Source: an uncultured Actinomycetes bacterium
GTDB taxonomy: Bacteria; Actinomycetota; Acidimicrobiia; IMCC26256; DASPTH01
Direction: 5' to 3'
NCBI GenBank assembly: GCA_963721435.1
Contig: CAVRJC010000003.1
Location: forward strand, 8,183-72,182
Length of the DNA stretch: 64,000 nucleotides
This document shows, piece by piece, positions 5,227 through 23,584 of the stretch. The translations under genes and the position numbers were made by a program. Position 1 is the first letter of the stretch. Each line of letters starts with the position of its first letter. Under the pieces are notes generated by a model that was not told where the DNA came from, ran no database searches, and saw nothing but the letters and a program-made list of their open reading frames with translations.

Positions 5227-6003
5227 ATGGCGACCGCACTCGTCACGGGGGCGTCGGCCGGTATCGGACGCGAGTTCGCCCGGCAGCTCTCGGTGCGCAA
5301 GCACGACGTCGTCCTCGTGGCGCGGGACGGTGAACGACTCGATGCCCTCGCGCACGACCTCGAGCGCGCGTACGGCACATCACCTGAACCGCTGCCCGCC
5401 GACCTCGTCAGTGCGGAGGGGCTCGCGGCCGTCGAGGCGCGGATCGCGGAGGCCGACCGTCCCGTCGACATCGTGGTGAACAACGCCGGGTTCACCACCT
5501 TCGGCCAGTTCTCCGAGATCGACATCGACCGCGAGGAGGACGAGATCCGGCTCAACGTGCTCGCGCTGGTGCGGCTCACGCATGCCGCACTCGCGGTCAT
5601 GGAGCCCCGGGGCGCGGGCGCGGTCGTGAACGTGTCGTCGCTGGCCGCGTACCAGCCGTCGCCGACCAGCGCGACCTACAGCGCGACCAAGGCATTCGTG
5701 AACAGCTTCACCCAGGCGGTGCACGAAGAGGCGCGCACGCGTGGTGTCGACGTGCTCCTCGTCTGCCCCGGGTACACGCACACCGAGTTCCACGCGCGGG
5801 CCGGGCTCGGCGCGCTGGGTGCGCCCGAGTTCTTCTGGCAGACCCCGGAGCAAGTGGTCACCGCGGCGCTGCGCGATCTCGACCGCGGTCGCGCGGTCAG
5901 CTTCCCGGGTGCGCTGAACCGCACGCTGGCCGCGGTCTCGAGCATCACTCCCGCGGGTGTCACCCGGCGCGCCGCCGGGATCGTGGTCAAGCGCAGTCAC
6001 TAG
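5227..6003 (+). CDS. Short-chain dehydrogenase/reductase
   Basis: TGASAGIG, NNAG, YSATK. Confidence 0.9.
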   Translation: MATALVTGASAGIGREFARQLSVRKHDVVLVARDGERLDALAHDLERAYGTSPEPLPADLVSAEGLAAVEARIAEADRPVDIVVNNAGFTTFGQFSEIDIDREEDEIRLNVLALVRLTHAALAVMEPRGAGAVVNVSSLAAYQPSPTSATYSATKAFVNSFTQAVHEEARTRGVDVLLVCPGYTHTEFHARAGLGALGAPEFFWQTPEQVVTAALRDLDRGRAVSFPGALNRTLAAVSSITPAGVTRRAAGIVVKRSH

Positions 6004-18155: not shown

Positions 18156-19230
18156 ATGTTCGATCGCCTTGGCGAACTGGAGACCGAGCTCGAGAAGCTC
18201 GAGGCGAGGTTGTCGGAGATCTACGCGTCCGGCGACCAGAACGCGCGCGCGCGAAGCCGGCCGTCGCCACGCCGAGATCAAGCCGATCGTCGACGCATAC
18301 CGCGAGTACCGCGCCACGGAGGCGGATCTCGCGGACGCGCGCGAGCTGCTGGTGTCGGAGGACGACGCCGAGATGCGCGAGTACCTGCAGGCGGAGATCG
18401 ACGCCAAGGACGCGCAGCTCACCGAGCTCGACGCGCAGCTCCGTGAGCTGCTGATCCCGCGCGACCCGGATGCCGGGCGCAACGTCATCGTCGAGATCCG
18501 CGGGGGAGAGGGCGGCGAGGAGGGCAACCTGTGGGCGGCCGACCTCTTCCACATGTACGAGGGCTACGCGGACCTGCATCGTTGGAAGGTCGAGGTCCTC
18601 GATCGCCAGCTCTCCGACATGGGCGGCTTCCGCGACATCACGTTCGTGGTCAAGGGCGACGACGCCTGGTCGCGGCTCAAGCACGAAGCGGGCGTCCACC
18701 GCGTGCAGCGTGTGCCGGTCACCGAGAGCCAGGGTCGCGTGCATACGAGCGCGGCGTCGGTCGCGGTGCTGCCGGAAGCCGAGGAAGTCGACGTCGACAT
18801 CAACGAGCACGAGCTCCAGGTCGACGTCTACCGGTCGAGTGGGCCGGGGGGTCAGTCGGTGAACACCACCGACTCGGCGGTGCGCCTCACTCACAAGCCG
18901 ACCGGCCTCGTCGTCACCTGCCAGGACGAGAAGAGCCAGCTCCAGAACAAGGAGAAGGCGCTGCGCATCCTGCGGAGCCGGTTGCTCGAGGCCGAGCGTG
19001 AGCGGCAGGAGGCCGAGATGTCGTCCACCCGGCGCGATCAGGTGAAGAGCGGTGGCCGGTCCGACAAGATCCGCACGTACAACTACAAGGAAAACCGCGT
19101 CACCGACCATCGCATCGGGCTCACGCTGCACTCGCTCGACAACGTGCTCACCGGTCAGCTCGACGATCTCACCGATGCGCTGGCGGTGGCCGAGCGCGCC
19201 GAGCAGCTCGGCGGCGACGGCCGCGCGTGA
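18156..19230 (+). CDS. prfA: Peptide chain release factor 1 (apparent frameshift in the (GC)5 run 18243-18252)
   Basis: VQRVPVTE (PxT), [27 protein letters not shown]. Confidence 0.95.
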
Positions 19231-19249: not shown

Positions 19250-20158
19250 GTGCGCACCTGGCGAGAGCTGCGTGAGCAGACGGAGCGGGAGCTGCGCGCG
19301 CTCGCGGTCGACGCGCCCGACTCCGAAGCGCGGTGGATGATCGAGCGCGTCTCGGGCTACGACGGCGTGGAGCTCGTCATGGGCGAGAGCGAGCCCGCCA
19401 CCGACGCGGCGTCCGCGCACGTCGACGACATGGTCGCGCGCCGCGCGCGCGGGGAGCCGTTGCAGTACGTGCTCGGGGAGTGGCAGTTCCTCGGCCTCGA
19501 CCTGATCGTCGACCGGCGCGTGCTGGTGCCGCGTCCGGAGACCGAAGTGGTTGCGCAAGTCGCGATCGACGAAGCCGCGCGCCTCGGGGCGCGGCGTGGG
19601 CCGCCGGAGCCGTGGACGATGGTGGACGACGCGTTCCCGCTCGTCGACCTCGGGACGGGATCGGGCGCGCTCGCGCTGGCGTTGGTCACGGCGCTCCCCG
19701 AGGTGCTGGTGTGGGCGACCGACGCGAGCGACGACGCACTGGCCGTCGCCCGCGCCAACCTCTCCGGTACCGGAGTGGCCGCGACGCGCGTGCGGCTCGC
19801 GTCGGGCTCGTGGTTCGACGCGCTGCCCGACGACCTGCGGGGCCGCATCCGGGTGATCGTGGCGAACCCGCCGTACATCGCGGAGCACGAGGTCGCCGAC
19901 CTCCCTCGCGACGTGATCGAGTGGGAGCCCTACGGCGCGCTGGTCAGTGGCCCGACCGGTATGGAGTCCATCGCGGCCATCGTCGCGGGCGCGCCCGACT
20001 GGCTCGACACGGACGGAGGCGCGCTCGTCGTGGAGCTCGCGCCGCACCAGGCGTCGGACGCGAGCGAACGCGCACGAGCCGCGGGGTTCCACGAGGTCAC
20101 GATCCGCGCCGACCTTGCCGGCCGCGACCGGGTGCTCGTGGCGCGGCTGTCTGGCTAG
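19250..20158 (+). CDS. prmC: Release factor glutamine methyltransferase
   Basis: GEPLQY, VLVPRPETE, DLGTGSG, NPPY. Confidence 0.93.
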   Translation: MRTWRELREQTERELRALAVDAPDSEARWMIERVSGYDGVELVMGESEPATDAASAHVDDMVARRARGEPLQYVLGEWQFLGLDLIVDRRVLVPRPETEVVAQVAIDEAARLGARRGPPEPWTMVDDAFPLVDLGTGSGALALALVTALPEVLVWATDASDDALAVARANLSGTGVAATRVRLASGSWFDALPDDLRGRIRVIVANPPYIAEHEVADLPRDVIEWEPYGALVSGPTGMESIAAIVAGAPDWLDTDGGALVVELAPHQASDASERARAAGFHEVTIRADLAGRDRVLVARLSG

Positions 20159-20169
20159 CGTTCCGAAAC

Positions 20170-20391
20170 ATGGCTGACGAGCTCGATGTCGACGCAATGA
20201 TCGCCCGGTTCCGCGAGCGGGCGGCGGCAGTGAAGGATCGGCCGCTCCCGCCGGTTGCCGGTGCGGACCGCCAGCGCTTCGTCGAGCAGGCCCAGCGTGA
20301 CTTCCAGGACTTCGCCATCATCGGCGACGCCACCTGGGACTTCACCGACGGCGTCCTGACCCTCCGTGTCGACCTCGCGGGCGGCAACTGA
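20170..20391 (+). CDS. Small hypothetical protein (73 aa)
   Basis: MADELDVDAMIARFRERA...; coding-like composition, preceded by TAGCGT. Confidence 0.6.
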   Translation: MADELDVDAMIARFRERAAAVKDRPLPPVAGADRQRFVEQAQRDFQDFAIIGDATWDFTDGVLTLRVDLAGGN

Positions 20392-20395
20392 CGAG

Positions 20396-20439
20396 AATAT
20401 GGGTGACCCATATTGTCATAGGTTGCTAGTATGGGTCAC
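20396..20439 (+). promoter_or_regulatory. Palindromic operator/promoter of vapBC
   Basis: AATATGGG-TGA-CCCATATT (20396-20414); GTGACCCATA...TATGGGTCAC (20403-20412 / 20430-20439); -10 TAGTAT at 20427-20432. Confidence 0.7.
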
Positions 20440-20682
20440 ATGAAGACGACCATCGACATCGCCGACGGGCTCCTCGAGGAGGCGAGGGCTGCGGCGCGTC
20501 GTCGTCATACGACGCTCCGTGCGCTCGTCGAGGACGGGCTGCGGCGGACGCTCGACGCGACCGACCCGGCGGCCTTCACGTTGCGAGACACGACGCTCCG
20601 CGGCGGGAGGGGGCTCGCGCCCGAGTTCAAGGATGCACAGTGGGACCGGATCCGCGACGTGATCTACGAGACGGGCACGTGA
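20440..20682 (+). CDS. vapB: VapB-type antitoxin (ribbon-helix-helix)
   Basis: MKTTIDIADGLL..A..TTLRALVEDGL; overlaps the PIN gene. Confidence 0.85.
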   Translation: MKTTIDIADGLLEEARAAARRRHTTLRALVEDGLRRTLDATDPAAFTLRDTTLRGGRGLAPEFKDAQWDRIRDVIYETGT

Positions 20683-21113
20683 TCGCGGTCGACACGAACG
20701 TGCTGGTCGCCGCGTCGCGTGACGACGCGCCCGGACACGAGTTGGCACGGCCCGCGCTCAGAGCGCTCGCCGAGGCGCCCGACGCGTGGGCGATTCCGTG
20801 GCCGTGCATGCACGAGTTCCTCGCGGTCGTCACGCACCCTCGGATCTTCGACCCGCCGACGAGTCTCGATCGCGCGCTCGATCAAGTCGACAGTTGGACC
20901 GAGTCGCCGTCGCTCGTCGTTCTCTCCGAGACCGTCAACTACTGGCCGCAGCTCCGCAGGGTGCTCGCAGCGTCGGATGTGATCGGACCCCGAGTGCACG
21001 ATGCACGGATCGCCGCGCTGTGTCTCGTCCATGGGATCGAAGAGCTCTGGACCCAGGACCGCGACTTCTCGCGCTTCCCGTCCTTGAAGACGCGGAACCC
21101 GCTTGCCGCGTAG
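20679..21113 (+). CDS. vapC: VapC PIN-domain toxin
   Basis: AVDTNVLV, conserved E, HDARIAA, TQDRDF. Confidence 0.9.
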   Translation: MIAVDTNVLVAASRDDAPGHELARPALRALAEAPDAWAIPWPCMHEFLAVVTHPRIFDPPTSLDRALDQVDSWTESPSLVVLSETVNYWPQLRRVLAASDVIGPRVHDARIAALCLVHGIEELWTQDRDFSRFPSLKTRNPLAA

Positions 21114-21142: not shown

Positions 21143-21553
21143 CTACATCTGCTCGTCGAGGCGCTCGCCGGCGTCCATGTGCTGGAGCAGCGCGCGGTCG
21201 ACGGCCACCCAGATCGTCTTGGAGAACGGGTAGAAGACGATCGGCAGGACGATCATCAGCGGAATGAGCACCGCCAAGATCGGCGCGACGGGGACCTTGG
21301 GAATGGTGAACGCGAGCGCGGTGATGAGTGCGATCGCAAACACCGCGGCGGTGAAGCCGATGTTGATCGCGAGCGCGCCGGCCCAGTAGCCCTCCTCGCG
21401 TTCGAAGTGCAGCCCGCAGCGCGGGCAGTCGTCGACGATGTCGAACCAATTGGTGAAGAGCAGGCCGGACCCGCAACGCGCGCAGTGCTTCGCGAACCCG
21501 CGCCGCATCATCTGGCCCTTGGACGCGGGTGCGACGGGTTGCATCACGTTCAC
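21143..21553 (-). CDS. DUF983 family membrane protein (CxxC...CxxC plus 2 transmembrane helices)
   Basis: CARCGSGLLF, CPRCGLHFEREEGYW; GTGA overlap with the upstream gene. Confidence 0.8.
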   Translation of the reverse strand: MNVMQPVAPASKGQMMRRGFAKHCARCGSGLLFTNWFDIVDDCPRCGLHFEREEGYWAGALAINIGFTAAVFAIALITALAFTIPKVPVAPILAVLIPLMIVLPIVFYPFSKTIWVAVDRALLQHMDAGERLDEQM

Positions 21554-23067
21554 GCGTCCATGATGTCGGGCGCGTCCTCCGCTTCGACCATCGGCCACAC
21601 GGGGAGTCCGGGGACGGCCGAGTCGGGGCAGATCGAGCGGTAGCGACAGGTCCGGCACACTTCCGGATCGGCGATGCCGGCGTACACCGTCTCGGCGCGC
21701 ATCGCTTCGACGGTCGCGCGCAGCTCTTCCTCGATCGCGTCGAGGTCGTCGGCGTCGGGCTCGAAAGGCTCGGGATCCTCGCGCACGTCGGGCGACAGGT
21801 GCTCGAACGCGATCCGCAGCCGGAGCCCGCGAACCTGTGCGATCGGCGCGAGCACCCACGCCTGGAGTCGCGCTTGGCGGTCGAGGCTGAGCTGCTCGCT
21901 CCACACCTGACCGGTCTTGTAGTCGCGCGCGTCGAGGATCCCGTCGTGCACCCACAACGCATCGATCCGCGCGGTGGCCATGAACGGCGGCATCGGCTTG
22001 CGGTGGAACCGCGCCCGCGTGATCTCGTGGCCGAGCGCGACCGCGTCGGTGGGGCAGCGGCGCGCGTGGTTGGTGAGCTCGGCGTGGACGCGCGTGTCGG
22101 TCTCGAAGCCGTTCGCCTCGAGCGCTTCCCGTACGTACGCGTCGTCCTGGCACGACCCGGAGCCGTGGATGAACCGCAGGAGATCGTGCACCTGCTGGCC
22201 GTGCACCGTGTTGCCGGAGCCGTCACTCGACGGGATCGAGAGCACGTACGCGTTGCGCCAGTCGCGGCGGCACCGGTGCCAGGTGTCGAGCCCGGTGGGC
22301 GTGAGCGAGACGATCCCAGGCAGAAAGTCACGGCGGCTGCCGTAGTGCGCGCCCGACGGGTGCTCCGGGCACGCGGCGACGTACCCGCACCCGCGACAGT
22401 CGTCACCGTTGCTCGCCACGGGCTCGCGGGTGCGCTCGCGCACGATCTGCAGTCGCGCGTCGAGCCAGGTGGTCAGCTCGATCCGCTCGACTTCGGAGTC
22501 GACGACGCGCTCGCGCGCGATGCCGCTCACGAGGTCGGCCCACACGACGCGCAGTGGCGCGCCGTCGGCCCACTTGGTGAGCCGCAGCACCGCAGTGCGC
22601 ACTGCTTCGAGCTCGAGCGGATCGGAGGGGACGCGCGCGCCGTCCCAGAGCGAGAACTGGCGGACCTCCTTGGCGCCGTCGGCGTCGACGACCGCGAGGT
22701 CGACCCAGCCGCCGACGCGCACCGCGCGTACCGGCGACACGGTCGGAGTGTCGAGGTCGTGGTCCTCGTAGCGCACCGCGCGGTCACCGAAGAGCTGCAC
22801 GTACCAGTGCGCAGCCTGCGCGAGGACCGCGCGCTCCTCCGGCTCGAGGTCGGGGCCGATTCCCGCGAAGTCGCCGATCTCCGGTCGGCGCAGCTCGGCG
22901 TGCGTCTCCCGGGCCGCGGCGAGGAACGCGTCCCGGAGCCGTGACCGGTGCACCGGGTCGGGGGAGGCGTCGTCGCCCGCGAACGACTTCGCGAGCCTCC
23001 GTTCACACATGGTGTCGGCCCGCCGGAGAAGGTACGGAGTGACCTTCGGGAGCGCGCCACCATTCAT
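21550..23067 (-). CDS. Tandem PD-(D/E)XK (AddB/Cas4-like, Fe-S staple) nuclease-domain protein
   Basis: Domain 2 has C, HxxVH, E, RIDAL, DYKTG, CRTCRYRSIC. Domain 1 has C21, VDL, EVRQF, CRGCGYVAAC. Confidence 0.75.
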   Translation of the reverse strand: MNGGALPKVTPYLLRRADTMCERRLAKSFAGDDASPDPVHRSRLRDAFLAAARETHAELRRPEIGDFAGIGPDLEPEERAVLAQAAHWYVQLFGDRAVRYEDHDLDTPTVSPVRAVRVGGWVDLAVVDADGAKEVRQFSLWDGARVPSDPLELEAVRTAVLRLTKWADGAPLRVVWADLVSGIARERVVDSEVERIELTTWLDARLQIVRERTREPVASNGDDCRGCGYVAACPEHPSGAHYGSRRDFLPGIVSLTPTGLDTWHRCRRDWRNAYVLSIPSSDGSGNTVHGQQVHDLLRFIHGSGSCQDDAYVREALEANGFETDTRVHAELTNHARRCPTDAVALGHEITRARFHRKPMPPFMATARIDALWVHDGILDARDYKTGQVWSEQLSLDRQARLQAWVLAPIAQVRGLRLRIAFEHLSPDVREDPEPFEPDADDLDAIEEELRATVEAMRAETVYAGIADPEVCRTCRYRSICPDSAVPGLPVWPMVEAEDAPDIMDA

Positions 23068-23140: not shown

Positions 23141-23584
23141 ATGCGGATAGCCATCGGCTCCGATCACGCGGGCTACCGCTTGAAGGAGCACCTCATCTCG
23201 GTCCTGCACGACGGCGGTCACGATGTGATCGACCTCGGCACGGGGTCCGAGGAGCCGGTCGACTACCCGCCGATCTGCGCCGGGGTGGGCCGCGAGGTCG
23301 CCGCCGGCCGCGCCGAGCGCGGGATCGTGCTGGGCGGGAGCGGCCAGGGTGAGCAGATCTCCGCCAACAAGGTGCACGGAGTGCGGGCCGCGCTCTGCAA
23401 CGACCTCTACACCGCGGAGTACTCGCGGCGGCACAACGACGCCAACGTGCTGTCGATCGGCGCGCGCATCGTCGCCGAGGGGCTGGCCGACGAGATCCTG
23501 CGGGTCTGGCTCACCACGGAGTTCGAAGGTGGTCGCCACCAACGCCGGGTCGCCGAGATCCACGACATCGAAGAAGGTGGGTAG
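23141..23584 (+). CDS. rpiB: Ribose-5-phosphate isomerase B (actinobacterial Glu-type)
   Basis: [33 protein letters not shown]. Confidence 0.93.

Follow-up and report, generated by a model that had tools for sequence, protein, structure and literature searches.

A motor-less gene pairing an intact with a degenerate Cas4/AddB/AdnA-type iron-staple module at a conserved chromosomal locus in one order of Acidimicrobiia

Results and discussion

The gene and its two modules

The stretch of DNA analysed here, called the window, comprises 64,000 nucleotides (nt) of contig CAVRJC010000003.1 from an uncultured bacterium of the class Acidimicrobiia, whose genome assembly is 90.6% complete. The target gene (P0001) occupies positions 21550..23067 on the minus strand as an open reading frame (ORF) of 505 amino acids (aa), and the G+C content of ~70% across the window is unbroken at this locus. 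It fuses two modules of the iron-staple PD-(D/E)XK nuclease type, an N-type module of residues 1-245 (22333..23067, minus strand) and a C-type module of residues 246-505 (21553..22332, minus strand). A DUF983 gene lies downstream and rpiB (23141-23584, plus strand) is divergent from the target. The two halves are paralogous modules of the Cas4/AddB/AdnA type, both with an invariant set of four cysteines, and only the C half keeps the full set of catalytic motifs.

The C module has the features of a canonical RecB/Cas4-like nuclease with an iron staple. PDDEXK_1 (PF12705) matched it over residues 255-481 (E 2.3e-19, 70.8 bits versus a cut-off of 22), and Cas_Cas4 (PF01930) reached 17.3 bits on the same half, under its own cut-off. 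Its putative cluster ligands are C266 (22270-22272, minus strand) and C471, C474 and C480 (21628-21657, minus strand), arranged as HRC266RR ... C471RTC474RYRSIC480, and these were invariant in 34 of 34 C-type sequences, sampled from fused and split loci and from the outgroup class. The catalytic core (21916..22029, minus strand) consists of H347-E348 (motif I), D369 (motif II) and D382-Y-K384 (motif III). D369, D382 and K384, together with G386, H294 and E422, were kept in all 34 sequences, E348 in 32, H347 in 31 and Q402 in at least 31. A second set of potential ligands, H301, C306, H334 and C338 (22054..22167, minus strand), sits on a helical insertion within the C module, apart from the iron-staple cysteines. 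H301, H334 and C338 were present in 34 of 34 sequences and C306 in 32, being missing in the two outgroup-class sequences; the quartet may form an extra site for zinc or another metal.

The N half returned nothing above threshold in Pfam or NCBIfam, and PDDEXK_1 scored 13-14 bits on it, versus the same cut-off of 22, with a consistent register in the window and in three of five other N-type relatives. Its putative ligands are C21 (23005-23007, minus strand) and C224, C227 and C233 (22369-22398, minus strand), in the arrangement DTMC21ERR ... C224RGC227GYVAAC233. The last three were invariant in 35 of 35 N-type sequences of the same three origins and C21 in 34 of the 34 that aligned there, and all eight cysteines of the two modules were also invariant among 74 fused homologues. 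A preliminary description of the window had assigned an N-terminal Cys plus a CxxCx5C motif to each half; both patterns were found, and on this conservation the eight-cysteine pattern is genuine and selected for, far beyond chance. Each module's cluster would presumably be [4Fe-4S] (or [2Fe-2S]).

The nuclease motifs of the N module are degenerate. Its motif III, E134-V-R-Q-F-S139 (22651..22668, minus strand), aligns with D379-A-R-D-Y-K384 of the C module, and a profile-profile alignment placed Q137 and S139 at the catalytic Asp and Lys positions. Position 137 varied among Q, L, V, I and M and position 139 among E, A, S, R and D; Lys never occurred in the 35 N-type sequences or the 74 fused homologues. 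D123 (22699..22701, minus strand), the motif II equivalent of D369, was Asp in 24 and Gly in 11 of the 35 N-type sequences (Gly ~31%) and Asp in 74 of 74 fused homologues, and the motif I equivalent was poorly kept. Reading E134-x-R136 as (D/E)xK with Arg replacing Lys was considered and rejected, the profile alignment pairing it instead with D379-x-R381, which comes before the catalytic motif. These data agree with the earlier claim that only the second half keeps the catalytic E..D..DYK, the first having EVRQF. Because the catalytic residues are kept in the C module and motif III is lost in the N module, we read the C module as the probable catalytic half and the N module as almost certainly inactive as a canonical nuclease. 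E77, Y89, E134 and R136 of the N module were invariant, and R162 and D178 nearly so; since this conserved surface is strong, the module would be expected to have retained a binding function.

Fold and kinship of the two halves

Searches by sequence against PDB chains, with the whole protein and with the N-type profile, gave nothing useful, and fold comparison was needed. The full-protein AlphaFold2 model, built on 74 homologues, had a predicted local distance difference test (pLDDT) score of 93.8 and a predicted template modelling (pTM) score of 0.90. Its best PDB matches in Foldseek were ACE1 (an Argonaute-associated nuclease of the Cas4 family), AdnA/AdnB, AddB and Cas4 SSO0001. The TMq of these matches did not exceed 0.35, with one domain matched per structure, so no solved structure has the two-module arrangement. 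Modelled alone, the N half reached a pLDDT of 87.7 and matched, at probability 1.00, the nuclease domain of AdnA (6ppr_A, E 1.5e-7) and ACE1 (TMq 0.55-0.62), with further matches to Cas4 SSO0001, lambda exonuclease, RecE, Exo5 and MGME1. The preliminary description had considered an N half lacking the nuclease fold; as modelled, the N half adopts that fold, in the form seen in AdnA, ACE1 and Cas4.

The kinship of the two halves was also seen at the sequence level. Broad N-type and C-type profiles aligned end to end in hhalign over 231-235 columns (probability 93-94%, E 2e-8 to 3e-7), and the alignment paired C21 with C266, D123 with D369, and the two CxxCx5C motifs with each other. Profiles made from the fused homologues alone aligned only over the C-terminal helix and CxxC (E 3e-5). 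The N-type profile gave weak matches to nuclease domains within helicase-nuclease ORFs of 1100-1900 aa, as well as to the adjoining C-type gene, which supports homology at the sequence level.

Distribution, fusion and fission

Searched exhaustively, a set of 1.84 billion representative proteins yielded 282 relatives at E ≤ 1e-3. These fell into three sizes: full-length proteins of ~500 aa, proteins of ~235 aa matching residues 5-236, and proteins of ~250 aa matching residues 246-492. The architecture was constant in 272 full-length homologues of ~500 aa. Source annotations were generic ('PD-(D/E)XK nuclease family protein', 'hypothetical protein', 'Cas4 (RecB family)'). A tandem or heteromeric architecture is undescribed in a phylogenomic study of Cas4 (PMC5704561) and in the wider literature searched. 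The superfamily of both modules is already known; no description was found of an active module obligately paired with a dead one, of the N-type subfamily or of such conservation across an order.

In a survey of 301 genomes of the class, with fused and split forms counted from six-frame matches and not from curated gene calls, the family was present in 64 of the 76 genomes (84%) of the window's order, which is probably Acidimicrobiales. Elsewhere among the 301 genomes it was essentially absent, with one C-type-like match outside the order. A single uninterrupted full-length gene was seen in ~22 genomes of the order, two adjacent matches in ~35 and an in-frame stop at the N/C junction in 4, and a few were fragmentary. 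Seven of the 12 genomes of the order without the family belong to one genus with genomes of 1.5-1.8 megabases. The split forms, in ~39 genomes, consisted of an N gene followed by an adjacent C gene, often overlapping, at 0-10 nt; locus L012 illustrates this, with an N gene that runs to 5702 and a C gene that begins at 5699. When the N-type profile was run across the phylum, only one further family, of another class, proved to have complete N-type genes; there the pair is also split, with a 4-nt overlap.

A maximum-likelihood tree of the concatenated N and C modules, rooted with this outgroup, clustered by family code and implied at least two changes between fused and split forms, compatible with a split ancestor. 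Two loci from records titled 'uncultured Burkholderiales bacterium' (L011, L022) showed the Acidimicrobiia-type glyA-rpiB-N-C-prmC-prfA synteny and fell inside the actinobacterial part of the tree; their label is probably a binning or taxonomy error.

Genes that stay adjacent, are co-translated and become fused repeatedly carry the classic signature of an obligate complex. On these grounds we infer that the N and C modules form an obligate heterodimer, or a pseudoheterodimer where they are fused. The internal pseudo-dimer proposed in the preliminary description is thereby strongly backed, the two halves being separate, adjacent and often overlapping genes in most relatives and in the outgroup class.

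Conserved neighbourhood

Across ~40 loci, the pair was flanked by prfA-prmC and, at its opposite end, by (rpiB)-glyA-wecA-atp. A DUF983 gene was usually found downstream on the same strand, immediately after the nuclease in the clade of the window and 1.5-2.3 kilobases (kb) away in many split and some fused lineages, beyond a TLP1 thiolase-like gene; some loci had none. The TLP1 thiolase-like gene (~500 aa, with TLP1 as an additional C-terminal domain, PF18313) lay directly after the C-type gene on the same strand (L012:6415-8031, L029:3444-4958 and L031:6495-8000, with equivalents in L033-L046) and was missing from the window locus. Some loci had an opposite-strand nitroreductase gene in the interval between the nuclease and DUF983, and in L001 and L002 it stood there on its own.

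In the window, the DUF983 gene (21143..21553, minus strand; PF06170, E 1.2e-9) encodes a zinc ribbon and membrane helices. Its start is either a GTG sharing bases with the TGA of the target (GTGA) or an ATG lying 5 nt downstream, and the target/DUF983 junction, 'GACGCGTGAAC', was identical in one relative. By this arrangement the gene is predicted to be translationally coupled to the target here; it is a conserved neighbour, which does not imply partnership. In the literature searched, DUF983 appears only in connection with alphaproteobacterial cytochrome oxidase operons. The toxin-antitoxin genes vapB (20431-20682, plus strand; PF09957) and vapC (PIN; 20640-21113, plus strand; PF01850) stood beside the target in this window only and not at that position in the other ~40 loci; as an insertion specific to this lineage, vapBC interrupts a locus that is conserved in other respects. 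The preliminary description had used DUF983 and vapBC as its contextual cue. The coupling to DUF983 and the adjacency of vapBC stood up for this locus; as a guide to function the cue is weakened by the restriction of vapBC to the window and by the frequent separation of DUF983.

Other nucleases of the genome

The source genome, as assembled to 90.6% completeness, gave no match to Cas1 (PF01867), Piwi (PF02171) or RecJ (TIGR00644). It encodes two other PDDEXK_1 proteins. The first is a single-domain Cas4/RecB-like nuclease of ~275 aa (G000 C6:450684-451415, L024, minus strand) with a DYKTG motif and a C...CDFCTFRPYC iron staple; BLASTP (E 0.03) showed no close relationship between it and the halves of the target. 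The second is the C-terminal part of an AddB-like protein (~1050 aa), whose gene is followed by one for a UvrD-like helicase-nuclease at G000 C12:~681400-687928 (L025, plus strand). The AddB-like protein lacks a Walker A motif and a Cys cluster and ends in an LDYKTG nuclease; the UvrD-like helicase has GSGKT and a C-terminal VDYKT nuclease. This pair is the AddAB/AdnAB-type resection machine of the genome. The preliminary description had also considered that the target might be an AddB/AdnB-like subunit with its partner elsewhere. The target has no motor, and because a separate AddB-like and UvrD-like pair is present it is not an orphan AddB/AdnB subunit.

Proposed function of the pair

On balance, the probable explanation is that the family provides a motor-less, obligate (pseudo)heterodimeric nuclease acting on single-stranded DNA (ssDNA) or DNA ends in housekeeping DNA processing, in which the dead Fe-S module guides or binds DNA. 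The modules would always be paired, as one polypeptide here and as two adjacent co-translated genes, N-type first, in most relatives. The C module would carry out metal-dependent cleavage of ssDNA or a DNA end through H347/E348, D369 and D382-x-K384. The N module would not cut and would serve in DNA binding, end recognition or strand guidance, for instance by holding an end, a 5' phosphate or one fork arm, with the C module cutting the strand that it is offered. Judging from the homologous Cas4, ACE1, AddB and AdnA, the cluster of each module would staple that module's own N and C termini. The outcome would be a minimal, ATP-independent end-processing nuclease. We infer the cluster binding, the identity of the cutting module, the substrate and the cellular role.

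Several elements of this proposal are known from relatives. The iron staple and nuclease activity are features of the Cas4 family, in which ACE1 and Cas4 cut ssDNA without a motor (PMC12094033). A staple of the N and C termini by the Fe-S cluster has been described in Cas4/AddB-type relatives (PMC12094033; PMC4176176). In AdnAB, the Fe-S subdomain of AdnA sits at the Y-junction and holds the unwound strands apart (PMC8789073).

The gene is chromosomal and vertically inherited, and the processing of DNA ends, in repair or recombination, is its most likely role, ahead of phage defence. Housekeeping repair or recombination is favoured over defence because of the core chromosomal position and vertical inheritance. 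Of the two roles offered in the preliminary description, repair or defence, repair is thus kept, in the conditional, and defence is unlikely.

Some observations weigh against this explanation. The neighbouring TLP1 thiolase-like, nitroreductase and DUF983 genes are uninformative on DNA metabolism. A LexA box or a RecA-NDp/PafBC-type motif was not found upstream in 33 loci, in a search limited to mycobacterial consensus patterns. The AddAB/AdnAB-like pair and the single-domain Cas4-like gene are further candidates for end-processing nucleases in the genome. The type and occupancy of both clusters are deduced from the conservation of the cysteines and from homology. The conserved E77, Y89, E134 and R136, the mostly conserved D123, and D178 and R162 may point to a non-canonical activity of the N module.

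A more specific version of the proposal can be offered tentatively, with a small chance of being correct. Here the pair would be a self-contained, motor-less DNA-end or fork enzyme of Acidimicrobiales and a sister class; the Fe-S subdomain of its dead module would split the strands like a wedge, or hold the 5' end, and feed one strand to the active module. Because no recJ was found in the genome, the enzyme would stand in for the missing RecJ-like resection nuclease. The two clusters and the His/Cys site might couple its activity to redox state or iron.

Alternative explanations

The target could be the nuclease arm of a helicase-nuclease machine, working like AddB or AdnA while standing outside those families, with a motor of the UvrD/PcrA, RecQ or RecD2 type recruited in trans. 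The closest structural matches do include AdnA/AdnB and the AddB nuclease domains, the N-type profile gave weak matches to long helicase-nuclease ORFs, and Cas4-like nucleases are tied to UvrD elsewhere, by fusion or in operons (PMC5704561). However, a helicase gene adjoined the target in none of ~40 loci, and a complete AddB-like and UvrD-like nuclease pair is already present in the genome. Cas4 and ACE1, for their part, need no motor to act on ssDNA (PMC12094033). On this evidence, recruitment in trans is unlikely.

It is more doubtful still that the protein acts mainly outside DNA repair, as a nuclease for RNA processing or as an Fe-S sensor of redox state or iron, linked to the membrane and lipid genes in its operon (TLP1, nitroreductase, DUF983). 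The conserved same-strand neighbours are of the TLP1 thiolase-like and DUF983 types and are not DNA-metabolism genes, two Fe-S sites and possibly an extra His/Cys site are predicted, and no recognisable DNA-damage box lies upstream. On the other hand, the full catalytic set of a nuclease is strictly conserved in the C module, all close structural relatives act on DNA, and the neighbours vary while the nuclease pair is constant.

Anti-phage or anti-plasmid defence, in which the DUF983 membrane protein, perhaps joined by vapBC, would be the sensor or effector, is very improbable. Roles in CRISPR adaptation and pAgo (APACE1) immunity are known for Cas4-family nucleases (PMC12094033, PMC5704561), PADLOC returned weak, generic Cas4 and DruK matches (best E 5.9e-5), and in the window the target is coupled to DUF983 and adjoined by vapBC. 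The distribution is contrary to that of a patchy, island-borne defence gene: 84% of the sampled genomes of the order have the gene, it lies at one housekeeping locus, and its tree groups by family code. No relatives were found with tblastn in 50,697 phage or 72,556 plasmid records, and the genome has no cas1 or piwi. At the other loci vapBC is absent, and often TLP1 or nitroreductase genes stand between the nuclease and DUF983, or the locus lacks DUF983. As the preliminary description had noted, no helicase domain, cas1 or CRISPR array was found near the target in the window, nor was a CRISPR-like array at 10-35 kb of the window.

A dual nuclease cutting both strands in the manner of AddAB/AdnAB, with the N module active through a non-canonical site (D123, E134, R136, E77, D178), is barely plausible: it would account for the invariant E77, Y89, E134 and R136, the nearly invariant D178 and R162 and the D123 invariant in fused forms, but E134-x-R136 aligns with the non-catalytic D379-x-R381, the residues at the true motif III Asp and Lys positions vary without ever being Lys, 11 of 35 sequences have Gly in place of D123, and the motif I equivalent is poorly kept.

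Comparison with known systems

Cas4 SSO0001 and ACE1 (PDB 9iab/9iac) resemble the target in the fold of both halves, in the layout of one plus three cysteines, in the RecB-type motifs of the C half, in a size of ~250 aa per module and in the lack of a motor. They differ in being single-module proteins that form homo-oligomers or bind Cas1 or pAgo, whereas the target joins an active module to a degenerate paralogue below the Pfam threshold. The identity of ACE1 to the target is 13-16% at the sequence level, and the target genome has no Piwi and places rpiB and DUF983 beside the gene. Unlike CRISPR-associated Cas4, the target has no cas genes in its neighbourhood and no Cas1 in its genome. The adaptation modules of type I-A CRISPR systems contain two distinct cas4-like genes, Cas4 and Csa1 (PMC5704561), and are thus alike in encoding different Cas4-family paralogues together. 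These archaeal genes are CRISPR-associated and unfused and both keep nuclease motifs, in contrast to the target, which has no CRISPR context.

AdnAB and AddAB share with the target two paralogous nuclease modules, acting there as a heterodimer, and, as predicted for the target, an Fe-S subdomain involved in binding DNA ends and splitting strands (PMC8789073), and they were among the top Foldseek matches. The target differs from them in having neither a UvrD-like motor nor a motor-like domain and in its size, 505 aa versus ~1000-1200 aa per subunit. Both nucleases of AdnAB are active, whereas one module of the target is predicted to be dead. The defence systems covered by PADLOC differ from the target, which has no system-specific match and no patchy, island-like distribution.

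RecC, of the RecBCD complex, is reported to carry an inactivated nuclease-like domain at its C terminus. By analogy only, a dead PD-(D/E)XK fold beside an active nuclease would serve in both cases as a DNA-guiding element. RecC reportedly differs in having no Fe-S cluster and in being part of a large three-subunit motor complex.

The iron-staple nucleases (Cas4, AddB, AdnA, Dna2, Exo5, ACE1) have so far been known as single modules or as appendages of motors. The family described here would represent a third arrangement, in which the permanent partner of an active module is a degenerate paralogue with a retained cluster site, with repeated fusion and fission across an order. At ~500 aa and free of an ATPase, it would be a minimal system in which the contribution of an Fe-S domain could be studied apart from catalysis. 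The N-type half, mostly a 'hypothetical protein' or unrecognised in Pfam and NCBIfam, gains a predicted fold, a partner and a testable role. The pair may also point to an unrecognised end-processing activity in Acidimicrobiia, which are abundant in soil, freshwater and marine settings and genetically unexplored.

Other features of the locus

No shared k-mer motif was present in the 33 upstream regions, and the window showed neither a sigma-70-like promoter nor a terminator. In one subclade with split genes, the end of a small upstream ORF ('...ELALGMVTLHELE.D.PS.RVIELNAAVD...') overlaps the start codon of the N-type gene; it was seen at L012:4762-5001 and L020:4588-4980 and as the upstream ORF of L022 and L040, and was not found upstream of the N-type gene in other clades.

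On the vapC side of the target, prfA (18169-19230, plus strand) is followed by prmC, which ends at 20158 on the plus strand; beyond rpiB, on the other side, lie glyA, a wecA-like gene and the atp operon. Between prmC and vapB, a small ORF of ~70 aa ('MADELDVDAMIARFRERAAAVKDRPLPP...') occupies 20177-20391 on the plus strand.

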